A stretch of 62,924 nt of DNA, from contig BCGN01000001.1 in the NCBI GenBank assembly GCA_001599295.1, positions 2,418,001 to 2,480,924 on the forward strand. Reading direction: 5' to 3'. Shown here piece after piece: positions 15,120 through 33,983 of the stretch (its first letter is position 1; every line of letters starts with the position of its first letter). The notes beneath the pieces are model-generated. The model was not told the DNA's origin. It was given only the letters and a program-made list of their open reading frames with translations, and searched no databases. The stretch is from Sporopachydermia quercuum. Its lineage: Eukaryota. Both the position numbers and the translations under genes were made by a program.

Positions 15120-16204
15120 ATGAGTTCAAGTACAGGCTCAAGTTCTTCCACAGATCACCCTCTTGCTGCTAAGCATAAGAAAGCAGTCGAGAGGATTTTA
15201 AAATGCAAACCAACAGCTTATTATAGCATTTTGCAAGTAGAACAAACGTCAACAAGTGACGAAATCAAAAGATCATATAGAAAGATTGCTATCACAGTGC
15301 ATCCTGATAAAAATACTCAAGATGGATCAGCAGAAGCTTTCAAAAGTATGTTACTTTTTAATTTTTATATTTTAATTTTTATCATGCCATTTCAGAAAAT
15401 GCATTATTTTGTTACAAAAATACTAACTGGTTTGATAAAATAGTGGTTTCCAAAGCATTTGCAGTGCTATCTGACCCAGATAAAAGACGAGTTTTTGACC
15501 AGACAGGCGCCGATCCTGAACAAGCAAGAACGCAAGCTGGTGCTGGCTTCCCTGGAGGAGAAGGTTTCGCCAGAGCAGACCCCGGTGGACCTCAATTCAT
15601 GAACCCGGAGGATATTTTTGCTAGTTTCTTTGGTGGTGGTAATACATTTGCTTTCAATAATGGTGGATTTTACTCTTATGGATTCCCAAATGGACCACGA
15701 AGGGCTAGAAGGCCACAGCAGCAACAACAGCAACGACAACAAGAAGGTTTCAAAATGAACCTACAAGTAGTCCTACTATTGTTAACCGTTCTTCTGCCAA
15801 TGATTTTACCATATCTTTCATCTGNTTTGTCTTTTATCTTTGGTATCGTTGACGATGGTCCTGTGTCATCTAATGGAGTGGCACCAGTATTTGCATTCTA
15901 CCAAGATGCCTCATATAATAAGGAATTGAAATCACCCAAGCTTGATATTCCTTATTATGTGAACGAAAAGAAGTACGAGAACCTTCCCCAAAAGAGGAAA
16001 GATAAGATAGAAACTAATGTCGATTACTATTACCTCCAAGACTTGAAACAGCGTTGTGATAATGAGTATTTATCCAAAGCAAGAATGATCGAACACTATA
16101 GAAGATCCAATGATGATAGAAGCGTATTGAAGTATATTGAAGCCATTAATGCCAAGGCTCCTTCTTGTGAAAGATATGTGGAGCTTAGTCAAAAACTACT
16201 GTAA
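15120..16204 (+). CDS. HLJ1: ER membrane J-domain co-chaperone (Hlj1/DNAJB12-like); join(15120..15345,15444..16204), 328 aa
   Basis: J domain with HPD is split by an intron; splicing gives AEAFK-MVSKAFAVLSDPDKR. G/F-rich region, poly-Q, TM segment, lumenal C-terminal domain. Confidence 0.88.
15346..15443 (+). other. Spliceosomal intron in HLJ1 (98 nt)
   Basis: GTATGT donor at 15346, TACTAAC at 15421-15427, TAG acceptor at 15441-15443. Removal restores the J-domain frame. Confidence 0.93.
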
Positions 16205-20964: not shown

Positions 20965-22625
20965 CTAATACCATACGTTTTCCTCTCTATCAGGATCCGC
21001 TGCTTTAGCGGCTCTTTCTCTTCTTTTCTTTCTTTCCAGTTTACTGATTTCTACTAAATCATCCTCACTGGGTTCAAAAATATGCCATACAACATAATGG
21101 GGTAAACCCCAAACAGAAAAGTCCATTCTTTTACACATTTTACCGAAAGCTTCTGTTTCAGCATGATTTTCNAATGTAAATGCAGGGAAATTAGCACCCT
21201 GTCGGAATACCTTTGCCTTTGCTAGAATAGAAACACCTCCAATACCATCCAATGGCATGATAGCATTAAGAGGCCCATTTTCGTCTCTGATGTATGCTAG
21301 ATGAACTCTCCAAGTTGGATATTCAGCATATCCTTCAACAATTACTTCATCTTCATCAAGTTGTTTAGCTAATTCAAGCCCAGCTTCAGATTCTTGCCAG
21401 GAATTTAAATCATAAGGTTGCTCTTTACCTAAGAAGCTCGGTAAAGGTCTCCACACATTGGGAACAACAACATCTTGATTATGTTGCATCAAATCCTCTA
21501 GAACTGTACCAGAACACATTTCAATATCAGCATCTCGCCAATATACCCAGGAATGATATGCTTTGATAGCGTTAGAAGCCAACCAGTTTCTTGCTCTACC
21601 CATAAGCTTCCGTCTTACACCCTGAATTCTTACACCATGTCGATCACTGAACCCTTGACCAATTACTTGACCAAAGTCCTTTTCGTATATAGTAATAGAT
21701 CTGAATGGTTTTCTATACTCTGAATGTCTTTTTTGGTTTTCTGCTTTGATTTGTTCATACCTTTCAGTATCCATGTAATTCATATAAATATCTCTGTTAG
21801 CACGAATAATATTTGAATTTTCACTGATTTTGGTTTGAGACATTATATCCCAGATCAATTTATCTTCATCTTCAATAACATCAGCTAAAGTTCCATTCTG
21901 TAGATAAACGGAGTATTCAAATAAATGATCCAGTGTGCGATCGTTTCCTGTGCAATCACTAACCAAAAATGCCAAATCAATCAATTCATGAGGATATGTA
22001 AGGTTCATTAGATGTCTGAACATTAGGGGTAAAACCTTTTGAGCATTTCGTAATGGAACAAGCATCAAAACTATTTCTTTATTTTCTTTTGCCGATTTTC
22101 CGTATGCATTACCCGTGAAATCATTTAAATCATAGTAGGAAACAGAATTATGGTATTCTTCTTCTAGTTCAAGTTCTTCTGTAGATTTTGAACCTGTTTT
22201 TGAGGTACTATCTTGCGCATCAAATTCGGCTGATAGTTTCGGTATTTGGTTTAGAGTATCTAAAGGAATATTTGTCGATTGTGATTTTGGTGAATTGATA
22301 ATGCTTTCAATATGAGGAACGTCTTGAGATCTTTTAGGAATGGACGTTTCGTCTAATGCCGATGAACTGCCAAATAAACTGCTGAGAAGATAAAGAAAGA
22401 ATATAATTCCAGCAATAGCAAGTAATTTTTTTGATCTAACAATCCGTCTCAGGTTACTATATTGCGCTGGTCGAAATAGTTTGCCATGTGATTTGTGATG
22501 TCTATAGACACAAATGATGTTAAAAACAAAAACTGGAGTCTAAGGGGTAGAGCAAGAAGGAAAGAAAACTGTACTTACATTGGGAGATCTGATTTTTTCC
22601 CTTGTGTGTCTAAAGATGAAAACAT
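20965..22625 (-). CDS. VAN1: Golgi mannan polymerase I subunit (Anp1/Van1/Mnn9 family); complement(join(20965..22501,22579..22625)), 527 aa
   Basis: KDFGQVIGQGFSDRH..IQG.RRKLMGRARNWL, WRDAD, ENHAETEAFGKM. The spliced N-terminus MFSSLDTQGKKSDLPIHHK... leads in frame to a type II TM segment, LLAIAGIIFFLYLLSSLF. Confidence 0.88.
22502..22578 (-). other. Spliceosomal intron in VAN1 (77 nt)
   Basis: GTAAGT donor, degenerate branch TTTTAAC, TAG acceptor. Joins the ATG at 22625 in frame to the Anp1-domain ORF. Confidence 0.82.
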
Positions 22626-23441: not shown

Positions 23442-25504
23442 TTAATGAGTCTGTAATCCACTTTCTCCTGGTTTAAACCATTGGGAAGCAAACGTTTCCC
23501 AAGCCAGTTTCGCCAAAAGCTCAGCCTTTTCCTCACTGGAGTCAACAGCTTCAATATATATCTTCAACTTTGGCTCAGTACCACTTCCGCGGCATGTAAA
23601 CCGGACTTGAGACAAGTCGCCCTTCTTGGCCTTACCAATAGGGTCTAAAATACCTGTTATCATCTGCGATGATGCAGAAACAGGAAGCAAAGGTTTATGA
23701 TCTCTTGTACTGGAGTCATATCCGACTGTTAAATCTCTCCAGTAGACTATGTTAAAGTTTTCACCAAGAGTCTTTGGGTAGCTATACTGTTTGCTGTCAC
23801 TCTTCTCACTACTATCACCAAGAGCTCTAATAGTATTGAAAACGGTCTCTCCAACTTCTGGACTAGGTGTAAAATAGTAATCATTATACTCGGCAAAATA
23901 ACCATACTTTGAATAGAGTTGATCAAGTTTTTCCAAACAATTGATGCCATCTATTTTCCATTGTAGAGCCATTTGTAGAAACACAGCAGCTGCAGATATA
24001 CCGTCTTTATCATGAACTACAGAAAACATAAACCCAATAGCTTCCTCATAGGCAAAAGGAACATCATATCCTTTGGACTCATACTCAATGGCCTTATTTC
24101 CAATCCACTTGAATCCGGTCAATGTATCACTACTAATAAAGTGTTCTTTATCAGCCATTGCCTTCAAGGCTTGTGATGATACAGTGGAGTTGAGAAAAAC
24201 AAGATTTGATACATCACCGTCATGCGATTTTGCGTATTGAGTGAAAATATAGTCAGCAAATAACAAACCTAGCTGGTTACCTTTCAATTGGACCCATGTT
24301 GACGATAATGCATCCTTAATAGAGGCAGTAAACCTATCAGCATCGGGATCATTTGCTAGAACAAGCTCAACATTTTGTTCGTCTGCTTCTTCCTGAGCTA
24401 TTTTCAAAGCCCCTTTTTCTTCAGGATTAGGAAATTTCACTGTTGGAAAAGCAGGATCTGGATTTGCTTGTTGCGATACAATTACTACTTGATTGCTGAC
24501 AGCTTTAGGATCTTCCAGTAACACATCTAACAGCTTCTTCATTGAATGTAGGCCGACGCCATGCATTGGTGTATAAACAAACTTAAAATTAGCTGGGATC
24601 TTCTGTTTACCTCCTATCAGTTTTTCCTCAATATCTTTGAAGTACTGAGACTCCAAATCTTTGACAGGGTCTTTCAGATCTCCGGTCTTTTCAGCGCTTT
24701 TAAGGGATTCGACAATTTTTTCATAATCCCAGTTTTGGTTCCAAGGTTGTAAATTCTCTTCCAGCTCAATTGTTTTTGCAATTCCACTATCATGCGGCGG
24801 TATTATCTGACAACCGTTACTCCAATATACTTTATAACCATTATCCATTGCTGGATTATGGCTAGCTGTTATCATCACGCCGACAGCCGCCTTTAGAGTA
24901 TCAACACCAAATGGGACCAGTGGAGTATGCACAAATCTTTTTTTATTTTCATGCTCGTTATCTGAAAATCCCAGTAGATAAACCTCAAATCCACGGCTCA
25001 GAAAGGTAAATGCAGTAATGTAGGCAAAATGTTTTGAAAGGTATCTATGATCGAACCCCACCACTAGTTTTTTCCCGATACTACTGGGATTTTGTTCTTT
25101 AGTTAATTGGGTTTCCACGTATTGACAAAGACCCTGTGATGATTGTAAAACTGTAACTGCATTCATTCTGGAAAAGCCTGCTTCCATTCGAGCTCTCAAG
25201 CCTGCAGTACCAAAAGCAATTCGTTCACCCAAACGTCTTTCCAGCTCTTCTGACTTTTGCTCGTTCACCAATTTCATGATTTCATCTCTTGTCTCGTCAT
25301 TCTAATTATCCTGTTAGTAACAGAAAGGCAAGATACATTCATAGGCTCAAGTTTTTATAGTAGCCATAAATGAGCTCTACAACCTCCAGCATGTATATAT
25401 ACTATGAAAAAAAAAGTCCTTACATTATCTATGGCCAGCCATTGTTGGACAAGGCCTTCAACCCTGGGACTCAGAATCCGCAAACTAGTTTCAAAATCTA
25501 CCAT
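23442..25504 (-). CDS. PRM15: Phosphoribomutase/phosphoglucomutase; complement(join(23442..25301,25424..25504)), 646 aa
   Basis: FGTAGLR, ITASHNP catalytic Ser, DPDADR metal loop, RGSGTEPKLK. Exon 1 (..VQQWLAIDN) joins NDETRDEI, giving the family W..D...TR.EI motif. Confidence 0.92.
25302..25423 (-). other. Spliceosomal intron in PRM15 (122 nt)
   Basis: GTAAGG donor, TACTAAC branch, TAG acceptor; phase 0, in frame. Confidence 0.9.
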
Positions 25505-25938
25505 TATTAAAACTTGATAATAGTATTAATGATAACAGAGATTATCTATTCGGCGGTTTCTCCGATTGATCAAAAGAAACTACAGAAACCTGTCACTTAT
25601 CACTTCAATATAAGGCAGATTTCTTATATCTGATCCAGATATGGTTAAAGATATCTGTAGTAACGTGACGTTACTCGTTAATTATGTCATCATTTATTCC
25701 TACTCCTATACTGTCTTATCACACATCAATTTATGTGATCCGTTAATATGATCTGAGATGATAAACACAACTTAGCTTGCAAACAGTATCATCAGCTTTT
25801 TTTTTTCTTTCCTTTTATGACATCAGTTGTCATGCTTACTAATAGTTAGTTTAGTTCGGTTTACGTCTGATCAAAATAAAGCGTATCCTGTGAAGAATTT
25901 TTCCTTCGATTCTCTACCCAAACAGGCGGTTGATTGAC

Positions 25939-25946
25939 CCGGGTAA
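25939..25946. promoter_or_regulatory. Reb1-type site
   Basis: Exact CCGGGTAA, about 200 bp upstream of the ATG of the hAT-derived gene. Confidence 0.55.
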
Positions 25947-26145
25947 CAACTGGAATCCTCTCCTGCTTGGCCATCGGCTCATTTCTCATTGTATTTCGCG
26001 AGGTTTTTTATTTTGAACCGATCTTTTACTTATCCTCATTACAGAAAAAAATTAATTCGGATCAGTTCATAATCATAGATCACCCAGACTCATAAAACGG
26101 CTCTTGATAAATAAGGGTTGTTTAGATCAATTGCTTATCACTACA

Positions 26146-28113
26146 ATGTCTAATTCTAAAGCTAATAATGCAAACAATATAGAGCCAGATATCACTAGTA
26201 TCATGCTCTTTCAAAACGATAACGCTCGGTCAAGAAGCCTCAAACGCACCAAAATATCTGCAGATTCAGAATCGTTATCCGCAGAGCAATTTGATGAATA
26301 TCTTAAAGCAAGAAAAACAAGTGATGTTTGGAAGTATTTTGTTTTCTCGTTGGATCAAGGTCGAGTCTTTTGCAAGTTATGTACAAGAAGTTATAAGTAT
26401 GAAAAAGGTCAGAGCACCTCTAATATGTTAAAGCATATAAAATCCAAGCATGATTATCATTCCGACTCTACCAAATCTGTTGACTTGGCTTCATCATCTG
26501 CGACTACATCCAATGGAAATCCTAGATCTGTAGTCTTAGGTGCTGCAGCCCTCTTAAACTCTACTCCTAGTTCCAAAGCACGCGTAGGTAGTAAGAAAGA
26601 ATATTCAATGAGAGAGACTCCTAAATCTGAAAGTAGGAAAAGAGAGGTATTGGACATTGTTATTGGATTTCTAGTGGAAAATACTCTTCCAATATCAATA
26701 ATATCATCTCCTTCATTTAAAGAATTTCTTCGAATTTTCAAACCCAGTGATACTATTTCTTCATTACCTTCTGCTGAGACATTGTCGGAAACTATCTTAC
26801 AACGATTTACAGAGAAGAAGACAAATATCTTGAAGATATTAAAAAGTCAAGTATCAATAGGCATAACGTTTGACACTTGGAAATCTGCTAAATATGGTAT
26901 GTTTATTGGTTATGCTGCCCATTTCATCGCTGAAGATATGACTAGTGTCTCTATTCCTTTAGCTATACAAGAGCTCTACGCACCTATCAGTGAAGAAGAG
27001 TTTAGTGGATTCCTAGAGCAAGTCCTGGATGACTTTCAAATTAAAAATATAATAATATCCATTACATGCAATAATTTGCTAATTGATTTCCAAAGACTGC
27101 CTAAATTAAATTTCGGCCAGGAAGTGTGTTTTGTTCGCAGTATTACTAATCTGGTAGACGACTTCTCGATCAATGTTTTGAGGGTTATCAACTCTGACAC
27201 TGAAGGCTTACCTCATATTATCAAAAGGCTGCGTGATTTCTGTAGACGTCTTTGGCAAGATGAAGAGCTGAAGGCAAATTACTTAAGTTTCCATGGAGAG
27301 GCGACTTTACCTGTCTATAGAAATAAAACAAATTTGGCATCCACTTTGACATCACTAGAAAGTCTCTATACTGAAAGAAATAGTTTGAACCAATTTATTG
27401 CTTTAAGAGGCCAAGAATTAGGTCTTGATGATTTTGCATTATCAGATTCTGATTGGAAAAGCGTGTTTGACGTTTATAGATTACTACAGTATTCTAAACA
27501 ATTGAATGAGTATTTATCCAAAGAAAATTCTGGCAGTATTACTTTCTACGTCAGAGCCCTTTCTTTCTTTAGAAACCAACTAGAAGAGTTCTTATCTTCA
27601 TCTATCAGTGCATATGTTTCTGAAGCTATTACGGTTTTGATCAATGAATTAGATGGGTTTTTACCGTTGATGGAGGAAAATACAAAGCTACAAGTCTGTA
27701 AATATTTACTTCCTGGTGGTAATATTGAAAACTCAGGTGAAGCTATTGAAGTTTTAACTGAAGCTGCTAGTCCTTTTTTCGAATCAGCGTTGCCTTTGTT
27801 GAAAGATGGTGCAATTTCAGATGATAATAATATTTTCACCAAGATTTATAAACCTAGAAATCCTAATACGATTGGTCGAGAAGTAGAAAGATACTTTACT
27901 GAGTTCCAGCAAGATCCTATGACATTTTGGAAATCTTCTACCTCTTATCCATCTATTAAGAAAGTAGCAAGAATATATTTAGCTATTCAAGCTTGTTCTG
28001 GTAGTTCTGAACGTTTGCTTGATAAATGTCAGCAAATGGCAAGTAAGAGAGATGAAATGGACGTTGAATTATGGCATGCTATTATTCTATTGGAAGGATG
28101 GAGGGTTGTTTAA
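26146..28113 (+). CDS. hAT transposase-derived BED zinc-finger protein (655 aa from the first ATG), probably catalytically dead or domesticated
   Basis: BED finger (RKTSDVWKYF..CKLC..STSNMLKHIKSKH), LPISIISSPSFKEFL segment, first catalytic ITFDTW, hAT C-terminal dimerisation domain (DPMTFWKS..YPSIKKVARIYLAIQACSGSSER). The second Asp, CxxH and TRW motifs are degenerate. No TIR or TSD was seen. Confidence 0.85.
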   Translation: MSNSKANNANNIEPDITSIMLFQNDNARSRSLKRTKISADSESLSAEQFDEYLKARKTSDVWKYFVFSLDQGRVFCKLCTRSYKYEKGQSTSNMLKHIKSKHDYHSDSTKSVDLASSSATTSNGNPRSVVLGAAALLNSTPSSKARVGSKKEYSMRETPKSESRKREVLDIVIGFLVENTLPISIISSPSFKEFLRIFKPSDTISSLPSAETLSETILQRFTEKKTNILKILKSQVSIGITFDTWKSAKYGMFIGYAAHFIAEDMTSVSIPLAIQELYAPISEEEFSGFLEQVLDDFQIKNIIISITCNNLLIDFQRLPKLNFGQEVCFVRSITNLVDDFSINVLRVINSDTEGLPHIIKRLRDFCRRLWQDEELKANYLSFHGEATLPVYRNKTNLASTLTSLESLYTERNSLNQFIALRGQELGLDDFALSDSDWKSVFDVYRLLQYSKQLNEYLSKENSGSITFYVRALSFFRNQLEEFLSSSISAYVSEAITVLINELDGFLPLMEENTKLQVCKYLLPGGNIENSGEAIEVLTEAASPFFESALPLLKDGAISDDNNIFTKIYKPRNPNTIGREVERYFTEFQQDPMTFWKSSTSYPSIKKVARIYLAIQACSGSSERLLDKCQQMASKRDEMDVELWHAIILLEGWRVV

Positions 28114-28753
28114 TTGGAGTATTAGAAATTCAATAGCTAGTGATTCAAAAGGTGTCAGACAATAGGGTTAGATTTATCGTACTGTTGTTTTGGTTCACGA
28201 CCGATTTCATTTAATGTTGTCACTTGATATAGGAATCGCCGGGTCACTATCAAAGGAACTGTCTGTCTCTCTTTCTCTTTCCCTCTTGATTATACTATCT
28301 AGACTGACAGAGCATGTATTTGTTCGGTTAGCATTTTATGGCTTCTAAGAATATTGACAGTAGTAATTAAATGAGTCTGACGAGGGAATCTGTTCAATTA
28401 ATCATACTATTATTAAATAGATTGATTGTATATGCATGAATTATGAACCATTATATAAATACAGTTATATTAATACACCTGATTGAACTGTGCATATGGT
28501 AGTTATGAAGTTATGACATATGATACATTATTCTGGTACAATGACAATGCAGGCAACAAAAAAAACTGAACTTGTAGATGATATTCAATTCAAAATATCT
28601 GAGCTACCTTTACCTCTTTCCAAACCAAAACAGCGCTTATACCCATACGTACAATGCTTTATTGTGTGTGCTTTATCATCCTATACTAAGTTCTTAATAA
28701 CCACAACAGTTATTCATCGTATCATGAAAATTCTTTTGCTATACAAATTTCAT

Positions 28754-31540
28754 TCACTGGTCTTCAGGCACGTCGTCATCATTCTCATTAGCTGAGTCTT
28801 CAAACTCTTCTAAAGCATTGAGTTCTGCATCCAATTCTTCTGCTAAAGCTTCTTCATCAAGGTCATCTTCGGTAGAAACATCATTTGAATCAATAGGATC
28901 AACAGTTTCTTTCACTATTGATTCCGAGTTTGGAACATTGTCAATCACATCAGCTCCATTAACATCTCCTTCTGTATTTTGTTCATATGCTTCTTGATCA
29001 TCAACCAATCCGTTCTCCCTGTCATTTTCAGTGTCATTTCCATCATCATCGTCGTCATCGTCGTCATCATCATCATCATCAGATTCTAGAAACTCATCAA
29101 GTTCTCTGTTCACGTCATTCCAATCTAAACCTTCTGTTATGGAAAATCTATCTTTAAAATCATCACCAGAATCATCATTTGATAATACATTATTTGTAGC
29201 AATAGAATTACTATTGAAACCATCATCAATCTCATTAACTACATAATCTGACTCTGGAACTCTCCTCCAGTTGCTCATACAAGCAAATAGCCAATCTGGA
29301 TGAACTACTTTAACTCCCGGAACTTTCTTCCTTGTTTCTCTCACTTTGGCTGTCCCTGTATTAGTGCATATGATATGGGTAATGTCATAAGTAGGCCTAG
29401 TTTCCACAATAGCACCGAATGATGTAGTCCAACGGACAATACCTGCTGAATGTATATTAATGCCTAATGGTAGCAATCCTGAAAATAGAAACACGCATCC
29501 TTCGAAGACCTGTCTTTTCATAGAAGGAATTATTTCTTTGACATCAGGAATAAGAAATTCCTGTCCTGGATTTTCTTTGTTCATTCTTTCATATTCTTCA
29601 TAGAATCTTTCATGAATTCTTAATAATGCTTTCCTTAAACTGCATAACTCAGTATCATCGTCAACTAACAATCTGTAATCATCAGGATTTTCAGAATGAG
29701 AATGATTTGTTTGGTTGGTAGTAGGGCTCGACGAAGACAAGTTAGGCAAGTCTGTTGATATTGTATTGTTGGCTAAATCATTTGATTGTAATGATGCACT
29801 ACTGTTTTGATGTAGATTTTCTGCTACAGCCTCGGCCTCAGCTTCAGCATCTTCTTCCTCTTGAACCAATCTATCAAGATTCTTCTGTAACTGAGCTAAT
29901 GGACGTTCGCTCTCCTGAGAAACAATAATTTTAGACCTTTGAGTTGATTGTATATCTAATAATTGATCAGCGCTCTTGACATTCTGAAAGTCAATAGCTT
30001 GAATGTTTTTATCTTCAATAAGATCGTCAGTTTCTAGTGCCAATTGCACATTTGATGTGCTACTTCTCCTTCGTCTAAATGTGTGAGCAGAATTTGAAAG
30101 CATGTCTTCATCTGAGTCGCTACTCACTGCTGTCTCTGAACCAGCTGATGATTCTAAATCGTTATTAGATGATTTCCTCATTCTTTTCAAATATTCTGTA
30201 TGGCTCTCATTATTATCATTAGGTCCGAGAGAAGAAGAAGGCTTTCGTTTCTTCGTAGGAATGAGATTATCGTTTGGTAAATTCTTTGATCCATTGAACT
30301 CGTTATTAGTAGTAATGTCTATCCTATCAGTACTGTTATTTCTAGTTTCCGGCCCAGTTTCTCCATTATTGACTGTACCGCGTTCTCCCTCGACTTCTTC
30401 TTGCACTACTGATAATCTGTTCTGCTGTTCTGCTTGTTCTTGTAGTCGTTTCTGCTGTAAAGCAACAATACTCTTCCTACCTCTTGTGGGACCTAAAAGA
30501 ACATCCTGTCTGGGTAAAAAGCCCGAGTTAATATCACCGATTCCCACGAAGAAATCATACGGAACTACTTTCACCAAGTTAGGACTCCATTTCCATACGT
30601 CTCCTCTGTCATCAATAATTACAACCATTGAAGTATCAATTGGAAACAATCGAGCCAGAAATTTTTCAGTAAGAGAGCCTGATTCATTACGTGATAATAT
30701 TCTATCACCAAAAAACTTCCCTGACGGGTCAACGATCTTTGCTATCTCTATAGCATAAGATCTAGTTGCCATTGTATAAATATGTAGTTCGTATTTTTCA
30801 CAAATGGTTTCCAGAAATTCAGTTACTCCAGGTCTTAGTTTTATGTAATAAGAATACACTTTTTCAGTTCCGTTTATCTTTTCACCTAGATTAAATTGTC
30901 TTACGTTTTTGATAGATTCATAATTTGGACCATTAGGATCTTTCATCCATTCTCCAACAGTTGGATCAACAGTAGCATGAATGATGGTTTGATCTAAATC
31001 TACTACCAGGACAAGTTTCCTTTCTTTTAGCAAATTCTCTTCTCGTCTTTTTTCAATCTTGGTTGCTTCAGAAATTGATACTTTGAGATTAGAATTATCA
31101 TGAGTCATGGTAATAGGTGCCCTTTCTGAATATTTGAACCCTGAGTAATCTTCTTCATCATCCACGTTTTTCCCACAGATAGCACACATCCCACCATATT
31201 GCACTGGATGAGCGCATGGTTCCTCAACGGTTGCTATAACAAATGAAGCATTTTCTATCACTTGTCCAACCTTTACATCCAATGATACTATTTTCCCAGA
31301 GATCGGAGATTCAAACTTGTTGACGTATTCAATGGGCCTTTTATTGTTTTCAGCATCAAAATCTTCTTCTTCCTCTCCTTCTTCTCTTTCTACTTTGATT
31401 GTCTCAATGAATTTATATGAAAGAAGTGATTCATGTTTACTAATCCCATCACCAGTTCGCTTCAGTACGGAGACAATAGTAACAGGAAAAGGCACTGAAG
31501 AAGGTAAGGTAATTGGTGTTGGGTCCTGACTCATTTCCAT
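28754..31540 (-). CDS. FCP1: RNA polymerase II CTD phosphatase
   Basis: LVVDLDQT HAD motif, C.H...GGMCAICG, DDRGDVW, BRCT domain (WLFACMSNW), acidic C-terminus. Confidence 0.96.
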   Translation of the reverse strand: MEMSQDPTPITLPSSVPFPVTIVSVLKRTGDGISKHESLLSYKFIETIKVEREEGEEEEDFDAENNKRPIEYVNKFESPISGKIVSLDVKVGQVIENASFVIATVEEPCAHPVQYGGMCAICGKNVDDEEDYSGFKYSERAPITMTHDNSNLKVSISEATKIEKRREENLLKERKLVLVVDLDQTIIHATVDPTVGEWMKDPNGPNYESIKNVRQFNLGEKINGTEKVYSYYIKLRPGVTEFLETICEKYELHIYTMATRSYAIEIAKIVDPSGKFFGDRILSRNESGSLTEKFLARLFPIDTSMVVIIDDRGDVWKWSPNLVKVVPYDFFVGIGDINSGFLPRQDVLLGPTRGRKSIVALQQKRLQEQAEQQNRLSVVQEEVEGERGTVNNGETGPETRNNSTDRIDITTNNEFNGSKNLPNDNLIPTKKRKPSSSLGPNDNNESHTEYLKRMRKSSNNDLESSAGSETAVSSDSDEDMLSNSAHTFRRRRSSTSNVQLALETDDLIEDKNIQAIDFQNVKSADQLLDIQSTQRSKIIVSQESERPLAQLQKNLDRLVQEEEDAEAEAEAVAENLHQNSSASLQSNDLANNTISTDLPNLSSSSPTTNQTNHSHSENPDDYRLLVDDDTELCSLRKALLRIHERFYEEYERMNKENPGQEFLIPDVKEIIPSMKRQVFEGCVFLFSGLLPLGINIHSAGIVRWTTSFGAIVETRPTYDITHIICTNTGTAKVRETRKKVPGVKVVHPDWLFACMSNWRRVPESDYVVNEIDDGFNSNSIATNNVLSNDDSGDDFKDRFSITEGLDWNDVNRELDEFLESDDDDDDDDDDDDDGNDTENDRENGLVDDQEAYEQNTEGDVNGADVIDNVPNSESIVKETVDPIDSNDVSTEDDLDEEALAEELDAELNALEEFEDSANENDDDVPEDQ
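29042..29080 (-). repeat. Coding GAT/GAC trinucleotide repeat (poly-Asp, 13 residues) in FCP1
   Basis: (ATC/GTC)n on the plus strand. Confidence 0.9.
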
Positions 31541-32820: not shown

Positions 32821-33983
32821 TTAGGATAAATGNCTGAGTTGCAAAAGGGATTTAGCAGCACCCATACTTGCTGGAGTACCTTCAACCTTTGTTGGTGAGG
32901 AGTAAGGTTGAGACAGTAGTTTTTCATCATTTTGTCTATGAGTTAAGGACTTTTTGGATTTGCTAGGAGTAACGAACAAATCCTCTTTTGAAGGTTTCGG
33001 TAAACTTGATGTATCTTCATGAATAGTGAAATTACCCTTTCGGTCTATTGAAAGTGGTGTAGAGTATGGAACAGAGGCTGATTGAGATGAGGGGGCTGTA
33101 GTTCTTATAGATTGTGGAGATGTTGATGCATTAAGCAGGTTGTGAAGGTTGAGTTTATTGTTGGGTTTATTGTTGTTGTTTTTTCCAGAGTGTATGGGAG
33201 TTGGGATACTGGAAAAAGAATTTGATGGTACCACAGATCTGAACTCTGATTTCATTGAGATGGATTTAGACTTTGGTACTTTCGTGTAGGATTTTGAGAT
33301 AGAGAATGATGGTTTCTTTTGAGTTTTGGTTCCAGGTGTAAATGAGTTGGATTTTGTTATTTTTGGTGCTCTGATAGGATTTAGTGAGGTTCCGAATTTA
33401 TTGGATCCAATTGAGGAGTTTGACCTTGTCAGAGCTAACTTTTTCTCCAGCAAAGATTTTTGCCTGGAGAAATTTTCGGTTGTTACTAGAGTGCTAAAAG
33501 TAGTTACTCTAGAAGGGAGTTCATTGAGAGATTGATAGACATTTGAAGATAACCGGGTGAGGGGGATATGTGTCTGATTTGTGCATAGTTTAAAATAGGC
33601 TAGCTTCAACCGAGTTTTCAATCTATCAGCGTGCTACATTATGGGTGTTAGTTCAAGGTCTTCTATCAGTTTGTTAAAGAAATGAAGACAAACGAGTTTT
33701 CACTTACCAATTTGGGATCAAAGTCTAGTTCCAATTCTGATTCTGTATGATCACAGAACGATGGTTGTTCAAGTCTGAATGCNNTAATAGGTCTTTCTTT
33801 GCGATCAGAGTTGTCTTCTTTTTTTGTAATTGAAAATGGCACTTTAATTGGACTTTTCAAAGGGCTTTTCTGAGGTGATACAGTCAAGGTTATTTTGTTG
33901 TTGGACGACGGAAGAACATTGATTTGGTTAAGCGAAACCTGCCCGAGAGGTATGCGATTAGGACTCATTGCTACAATAGACAT
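32821..33983 (-). CDS. NRM1: MBF co-repressor Nrm1 (Whi5 family); complement(join(32821..33633,33708..33983)), 362 aa
   Basis: N-terminal D-box RIPLGQVSLNQIN, Whi5/Nrm1 domain HADRLKTRLKLAYFKLCTNQ, several S/T-P CDK sites, C-terminal AAKSLLQL. It neighbours LRO1 as in S. cerevisiae. Confidence 0.85.
33634..33707 (-). other. Spliceosomal intron in NRM1 (74 nt)
   Basis: GTAAGT donor, AACTAAC branch, TAG acceptor; phase 0. Fuses the 105-aa and 266-aa ORFs of the track. Confidence 0.9.

Follow-up and report, generated by a model that had tools for sequence, protein, structure and literature searches.

A stretch of 62,924 nt from Sporopachydermia quercuum (assembly GCA_001599295.1, contig BCGN01000001.1, positions 2,418,001–2,480,924 of the forward strand; hereafter the window, in whose numbering positions are given) carries an uninterrupted single-copy gene of 655 amino acids (aa). 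Judged from its sequence and predicted fold, the protein is derived from a hAT transposase, with a BED zinc finger, an RNase H-like core with a helical insertion, a PF05699 region and the fold of the Hermes transposase. The gene is probably domesticated and would encode a DNA-binding protein which does not cut, since four of the six key active-site residues (the second catalytic Asp, the His of the CxxH motif and an Arg-Trp pair) have been lost. Domestication of hAT transposases has precedents in plants, vertebrates and yeasts (VID22/ENV11, RSF1, KAT1, fixed Rover copies), and the gene adds one more case of a familiar kind of event. The features are collected in Table 1.

Table 1. Features of the 655-aa gene and its surroundings.
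Feature	Position	Strand	Basis or remark
hAT transposase-derived gene, 655 aa, single copy, uninterrupted	26146..28113	+	ORF, Pfam, genome searches, structure match
BED zinc finger, aa 59-102 (W62, C76, C79, H97, H102)	26320..26451	+	Pfam; conservation
Three-helix region, equivalent of the Hermes intertwined dimerisation domain, aa 160-232	26623..26841	+	confident in model
First catalytic Asp, D243, kept (with W245)	26872..26874	+	alignment to relatives and Hermes
Second catalytic Asp site, now N309	27070..27072	+	alignment to relatives
CxxH region CFVRS, aa 328-332; His lost in both registers	27127..27141	+	alignment, HMM, BLASTP
TRW motif, now TNL, aa 395-397	27328..27336	+	alignment to relatives
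C-terminal hAT region, Dimer_Tnp_hAT, aa 588-652 (PF05699)	27907..28101	+	Pfam; Hermes alignment
Reb1-type motif in the spacer common with the PGM3-like gene	25935..25946 (motif 25940-25946, -)		~200 nt upstream
Left neighbour: phosphoglucomutase-family gene, PGM3/PRM15-like (subtype inferred), divergent	23442..25277	-	Pfam; ancestral gene order
Right neighbour: FCP1-like CTD phosphatase (NIF + BRCT), convergent	28754..31540	-	Pfam; ancestral gene order

Loss of the active-site residues

Relatives were collected with phmmer among 1.84 billion representative proteins, resulting in 2319 matches at E 0.001, of which the best 150 were considered. Among the proteins retrieved, 86 were 550–760 aa long; 77 of them were aligned and nine were excluded, eight lacking at least one motif by regular expression and one being a near-duplicate. 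The profile of the 77-relative alignment was mapped onto Hermes of Musca domestica to set the residue equivalences. The Hermes catalytic triad is taken here to be D180, D248 and E572.

D243, W245 and E622 correspond to Hermes D180, W182 and E572 and are kept. The retention of D243 and E622 had been claimed in a first-pass annotation, made from the letters of the window alone, together with the loss of the second Asp and of the TRW tryptophan. All of these claims were confirmed, as N309 stands at the position of Hermes D248 and N396-L397 at those of R318-W319. The annotation had also read the CxxH motif as CFVR (C328..R331). The loss of the His, equivalent to that of Hermes C265xxH268, held in the CFVRS block, whereas the register was ambiguous: the large alignment and the hidden Markov model (HMM) gave C328..R331, and BLASTP with the nearest relative gave F329..S332. 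Since aa 260-356 contain no His, it is lost in either register. An L-INS-i alignment of 12 rows misplaced this block and was excluded for the CxxH motif. Neither of the acidic residues closest to the lost second Asp, D296 and D314, occupies its canonical position, which is the end of strand 303-308. Of the 77 relatives, 64 have lost none of the key residues, seven one, five two and one three, a contrast with the 655-aa protein that is inflated by the exclusion of the eight motif-less proteins.

The intact DDE triad, the CxxH His and the RW motif of an active hAT element are thus missing, and so is the combination of intact DDE and CxxH found in a Kat1-type endonuclease. The roles of Hermes H268, W182, W319 and K585/R586/R588 have been described (PMC4763223). 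In Kat1, single DDE mutants gave no joining, a CxxH mutant nicked DNA and made no hairpins, and the mutant at the W319 equivalent still cut (PMC4763223). The loss of the Trp alone would therefore leave cutting possible. By analogy with the Kat1 and Hermes mutants, the combined losses very probably abolish catalysis. Rescue of the active site by adenosine-to-inosine editing was rejected, since the codons allow only N309 to be restored and neither the His nor the Trp.

The reading frame, domains and fold

The open reading frame (ORF) has no internal stops, and the other five frames carry 20–78. In 2000 base shuffles of the ORF the longest open run was 164 codons. The base at -3 before the ATG is A. 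Contigs from two DNA runs were identical to the ORF letter for letter; these runs are possibly the source of this assembly, hence the identity serves as a check on sequencing error only. No polymorphism was detected within the ORF across four DNA runs, and the two other organisms gave only short pieces. In two DNA runs a 37-nt piece resembling 26454-26490, with four mismatches, was present on a different contig; the DNA search of the genome did not recover it, and it is probably due to chance.

The unbroken frame and full hAT architecture of the first reading were borne out. Pfam zf-BED (aa 59-102, E 1.4e-8) and Dimer_Tnp_hAT (aa 588-652, E 2.7e-6) were both above the cut-off. The BED ligands C76, C79, H97 and H102 are at the expected places, as had been stated. 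According to the alignments, S92, N93 and K96 of the recognition helix are equivalent to Hermes S66, N67 and R70, which contact bases (PMC10368747). The three-helix region shares 19% identity with the closest intact relative. In the C-terminal hAT region E622, R623, K634 and R635 are kept, F625L and S626D are changed, and the equivalent of Hermes R588 is E637. Basic patches are located at aa 33-36 and 150-166, as would suit a nuclear protein.

The structure prediction that had been proposed was performed with AlphaFold2 on a 78-row alignment. The model had a mean predicted local distance difference test score of 79 and was confident except for the N-terminus and the 109-156 linker. Its best Foldseek match was Hermes (E 2e-15). 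With VIA-align, Z values of 24–28 were obtained for six Hermes entries, the next family reaching 11.6; superpositions at Z 26–28 had root mean square deviations of 2.9–5.7 Å across 394–422 residues. A profile of relatives built without the query matched the protein at E 1e-76. The top look-alikes in the ESM Atlas were vertebrate ZBED genes, and the Atlas search of unnamed clusters gave none at 0.9 or above. In the Protein Data Bank (PDB) sequence search with the protein alone only a weak BED match was detected (E 0.4).

The likeness to Hermes (PDB 4D1Q, 6DWW, 8EDG) thus extends to the fold and the domain order. Hermes D180, W182, E572, R573, K585, R586 and the BED residues S66 and N67 have equivalents in the 655-aa protein. 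In contrast, the equivalents of D248, H268, R318, W319, F575, S576 and R588 are changed, the identity is ~17%, and the gene has no convincing transposon ends.

Maintenance of the open frame

The 655-aa protein keeps 32 of the 58 columns conserved at 80% or more, compared with a median of 91% and a worst value of 73% among its relatives. Neutral decay was simulated under an assumed point-mutation model with no indels. At 10% amino-acid divergence the frame stayed open in 8 of 2000 runs, and at 20% or more in none of 2000; at 30% the mean was 14.5 stops. Runs from the nearest intact relative to the observed loss (24 of 60 shared conserved columns) accumulated 21 nonsense changes on average and at least 5 (n = 1000). 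As neutral decay to the observed loss would bring about 20 stops, we infer from the simulations that selection has been acting to keep the frame open.

Retention was uneven between the finger and the rest. All 7 conserved columns of BED were kept, which happened in 1.2% of neutral runs, whereas elsewhere 29 of 53 were kept (Fisher p 0.035). Of the 85 core columns, 79 were still hydrophobic, compared with 72.4 in the neutral model (3.6% of runs). The codon use of the gene is host-like: its GC content at third codon positions is 0.28 and its codon fit, 0.142, lies inside the 0.06–0.22 range of 19 neighbours.

Published criteria of domestication are a coding sequence that is intact, a lack of transposition sequences, an orthologous locus in related species and purifying selection (PMC4316626). 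The coding sequence here is intact, and no convincing transposition sequences are present, one marginal end pair being noted. The co-option as a host factor proposed in the first-pass annotation is well supported indirectly, by the frame that is open after deep erosion, the single copy, the lack of convincing ends, the host codons and the retained fold and BED finger. The related claim that specifically the cutting residues were lost held only in part: BED was spared, but outside it conserved columns were kept alike whether apolar (16 of 27) or polar (13 of 26; p 0.59).

This last result is one of several which weigh against a protein kept for binding. The residue losses are spread across the catalytic and insertion domains. 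The BED and core retention tests are two of several that were tried, and their significance is only modest. The branch of the protein is long, with 1.5 substitutions per column versus about 0.9 to the tips of its [Candida] boidinii relatives, which fits relaxed constraint, and the simulations cannot separate the changes that predate immobilisation. The inflated contrast in key residues belongs here as well. The retained BED finger does not fix the binding mode, since Vid22 of Saccharomyces cerevisiae binds G-quadruplex DNA without BED ligands (PMC8682794). Finally, no orthologue was found in the protein or metagenome searches. The missing orthologues mean little, however, because the species is poorly sampled in the protein collection: exact look-ups of the protein and five neighbours gave 0 of 6. 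In a word-indexed search of 5.8 billion proteins, none of the 8000 scored candidates passed for the 655-aa protein.

Copy number, ends and the Reb1-type motif

The genome search with the protein gave one full match, and those with its own DNA (25300-28750) and with an intact relative gave one each; such counts are lower bounds. The copy number, which was to be checked, was accordingly one. No near-identical copies and none of the further copies or derivatives of an active element were found in the genome.

The ends were scanned as 12-nt inverted ends with 8-nt direct flanks. Around the gene 3 candidates were found, compared with 2–6 in 8 shuffles. The best pair, 25397/28433 (window 25389-25408 and 28422-28441), is TA-rich, with 10 of 12 inverted and 7 of 8 direct matches, and its span of 3037 bp would suit the size of a hAT element. 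Its own thresholds were reached in 2.5% of 200 dinucleotide shuffles and its summed score in 6.5%; among 239 real spacer pairs the counts were 6 and 17, respectively. We read the pair as probably due to chance, because neutral ends should not survive 1.5 substitutions per protein column. The absence of terminal inverted repeats (TIRs) and 8-bp target site duplications (TSDs) in the first reading therefore stands as an absence of convincing ends, qualified by this marginal pair. A TIR of the parent family was not obtained, metagenome scans confirming 0 of 129 and 0 of 118 candidates.

A host-type Reb1 site upstream had also been counted in favour of domestication. The motif is present, as called with what we take to be the Reb1 consensus, but it carries no evidential weight: 3 such motifs were found in the window versus 2.1 expected, 36 of 100 shuffles reached 3, and the 868-nt spacer holding it is common with the divergent PGM3-like gene.

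Two further observations concern the spacers. The sequence TGACCCGG at 25935-25942 and 28239-28246 forms an 8-bp inverted pair flanking the gene, its downstream copy lying in the convergent spacer with FCP1. As transposon ends the pair was rejected, being absent from the output of the TIR and TSD scan, and is read as two Reb1-type motifs. Perfectly inverted 7-bp arms separated by 3 nt (window 25659-25675) lie in the divergent promoter with the PGM3-like gene and could be the site of a dimeric factor.

Relatives and origin

The best full-length relative among the best 150 matches was OWB64652.1 of [Candida] boidinii (E 1.5e-40), in which D, D, E, CxxH and TRW are all intact. Two rows of stronger or similar score were multi-BED repeats aligned to the finger only. 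When OWB64652.1 was used as query, 69 of 8000 candidates matched and the top four rows were all from C. boidinii (itself and three at 74–80% identity). The family contains a second intact copy, OWB76091.1, and the OWB73188.1 and OWB57158.1 groups. These two groups each recur under four strain tags, and one has three BED fingers and TKW for TRW; they are possibly fixed, early-worn copies. No Saccharomycetaceae name appeared among the named rows of the 69 matches, which is a weak hint only. The sequence searches made returned no Vid22, Env11, Rsf1, Rover or Roamer sequences.

The 655-aa protein is 23–26% identical to the C. boidinii family over the whole length, and 24–26% identical to its intact transposases. 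It scores 167–175 bits with the intact copies versus 126 with the next relative, and shares their particular motifs. In a 24-row IQ-TREE it grouped with the family at support 99/99, a long-branch row being omitted. This row is a second hAT-derived gene of the same genome, encoding 968 aa (contig C8, about 832577-835480, + strand) with weak BED and PF05699 matches; its DSWT and CGDH motifs are kept and the later ones are worn. None of 7999 scored candidates passed for it in the word-indexed search. With the 968-aa row included, the C. boidinii grouping was supported at 99 in a 67-row FastTree and below 80 in an IQ-TREE of 25 rows; these rows, and the 24 of the other IQ-TREE, were chosen by hand from the 67. 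According to two of three trees, the intact C. boidinii transposases are thus the probable nearest relatives, or sister family, of the 655-aa gene.

FCP1 (YMR277W) and PGM3 (YMR278W) occupy the consecutive ancestral loci Anc_8.839 and Anc_8.840 (PMC2675101), so the 655-aa gene has been inserted between two old neighbours. The ancestral locus of VID22/ENV11 is Anc_4.221, following ROM2 and ELO3 (PMC2675101). On contig C5 a ROM-like gene, named from its best CNH match, and an ELO gene are still adjacent and are followed by a C2H2 finger gene. No hAT-profile match was detected at this site in six frames over 30 kb. Since the site is without one and the gene lies at the equivalents of Anc_8.839/8.840, the 655-aa gene is not the positional orthologue of VID22/ENV11.

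The gene is probably a separate capture, as the first-pass annotation had proposed. The alternative, which we regard as improbable, is that it is a relative of VID22/ENV11 at a new place or stems from an old duplication of the 968-aa gene; the protein would be of the same kind. The fall of the C. boidinii grouping in the 25-row tree is in its favour, and a clade joining this gene to the 968-aa one was not rejected by an approximately unbiased (AU) test (p 0.45), so that independence is only partly established. However, the two proteins, both on long branches, scarcely align (best E 0.02). The bit scores and shared motifs, the two trees with high support and the empty ROM-ELO site also speak for a separate capture from a lineage with an intact sister family.

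Other BED-bearing genes were observed in the genome. A 507-aa gene on contig C2 has a BED finger without a detected transposase core. On contig C8 two neighbouring BED ORFs have similar N-terminal motifs of the CCH-H type and no detected core, and one passes the zf-BED cut-off.

Discussion

The 655-aa protein is likely to be a dimeric nuclear DNA-binding factor, unable to cut and similar to Vid22 (PMC8682794) in its action on promoters or chromatin, and to descend from a hAT element kept by its host. An element of the lineage still intact in C. boidinii would have inserted between FCP1 and the PGM3-like gene and lost its ends while the host kept the coding sequence. The zinc-bound BED helix may read a short motif in the major groove, and the Hermes-like body would fold and probably pair, presenting two fingers. 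Without the second Asp, the His and the Arg-Trp, the RNase H-like core should perform no nicking, hairpin formation or joining; it may still grip DNA, as W245, R623, K634 and R635 are kept. Like Vid22, Rsf1 or the ZBED proteins, the protein would regulate promoters or chromatin.

Besides the question of a separate capture, three other explanations were weighed. It is quite unlikely that the gene serves transposon control, a dead subunit binding the ends or poisoning the multimers of its parent element and so providing immunity rather than regulation of host genes. The whole architecture is retained, including the equivalents K634/R635 of TIR-contacting residues (PMC4763223), hAT enzymes work as multimers (PMC10368747), and another yeast still has intact members of the parent lineage; but no intact or fragmentary family copy was found elsewhere in the genome, as far as lower-bound counts tell, and an identity of 24–26% makes mixed multimers with the known relatives improbable. 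Slightly less likely still is a neutral relic whose frame is open by luck. The broad erosion of conserved columns, the long branch and the lack of an orthologue and of TIRs would fit it, but the simulated decay to comparable divergence never left the frame open, BED and the hydrophobic core are kept above the neutral level, and the model is confident over the core. A Kat1-like nuclease with an altered active site, for instance nicking only with D243 and E622, is the least probable: D243, W245, E622 and R623 survive the general erosion, and Kat1 W576A still cuts and its CxxH mutant still nicks, but single DDE mutants of Kat1 are inactive (PMC4763223), the losses are combined here with no acidic residue in the canonical second place, and ZBED genes retain DDE residues for unknown, non-cutting reasons (PMC3606216).

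Among the systems already described, the proteins of the C. boidinii family share the length class, architecture and lineage motifs of the 655-aa protein. The family keeps D, D, E and CxxH (with TRW in two intact copies) in several copies per strain, whereas the 655-aa gene is single and disarmed. Vid22/Env11 (YLR373C/YGR071C), with BED and an RNase H-like domain, a probable hAT origin and the status of a fixed host gene (PMC2675101, PMC8682794), are the best functional analogue. They differ from the 655-aa gene in locus and domain content: in the rows consulted of Sarilar Table S3, YGR071C homologues are mostly without PF05699, which the 655-aa protein has.

Yeast hAT captures in print are RSF1 and VID22/ENV11 (PMC2675101), KAT1 (PMC4763223) and TIR-free fixed Rover copies (PMC4316626), besides 52 further singleton or family hAT matches (PMC4316626). 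Kat1 (Kluyveromyces lactis, Roamer-derived), the Rover copies and RSF1 are TIR-free, hAT-derived genes at fixed loci (PMC4316626, PMC2675101, PMC4763223), comparable to the 655-aa gene, in which no convincing TIR was found. Kat1, however, has retained DDE and CxxH and is a DNA-cutting enzyme. The average length of Roamer is 860 aa, Rover ranges over 629–1170 aa and RSF1 is truncated to 376 aa, all in Saccharomycetaceae, versus 655 aa here. Vertebrate ZBED genes represent repeated independent domestication of hAT elements as BED-bearing regulators (PMC3606216); their DDE triad is reported as conserved, in contrast to the broken triad here. No paper on the 655-aa gene or the C. boidinii family was found in the literature searched, most subscription journals being outside its scope.

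The case would add a probable separate capture outside Saccharomycetaceae, with a datable insertion site and intact sister enzymes in C. boidinii. It makes testable which parts of a transposase hosts keep, and whether different transposon lineages have been drawn convergently into Vid22-like chromatin roles in yeasts. More tentatively, this may be a yeast without VID22 at the ancestral site, with two hAT captures of its own (655 and 968 aa) and several BED-only genes, in which the 655-aa protein is a convergent Vid22-like factor from a lineage distinct from Rover/Roamer with intact and worn members in C. boidinii. If so, an intact enzyme, early-worn copies and a disarmed host protein could be compared within one family.

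Genomic setting

The assembly is that of a budding yeast, 16.4 Mb in 15 contigs. The window has a GC content of about 35% and intron-poor genes, including POL3, FCP1, ATG3, VPS27 and HSP90 (Pfam). CTG is read as Leu, as the CTG codons of POL3, in the compared portion of its alignment with the S. cerevisiae protein, stand against Leu. The PGM3 subtype of the left neighbour was assigned from its position, length and lack of a PGM1-type structure match. The tRNA and Rfam scans of the window gave no match, and a UPF3 family search gave none anywhere in the genome, which is uninformative.

No GMC oxidoreductase match was found in the genome, which suggests that the host yeast is a non-methylotroph. 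Alcohol oxidase is then probably absent, though the closest hAT relatives sit in the methylotroph C. boidinii. Short or N-truncated ORFs were observed at window positions 15120-16204, 20965-22065 and 32821-33983 (DUF1977/DnaJ-type; Anp1 from profile position 25; two small ORFs). The window holds 15 single N bases, which together with the short ORFs suggests introns or single-base assembly ambiguities.

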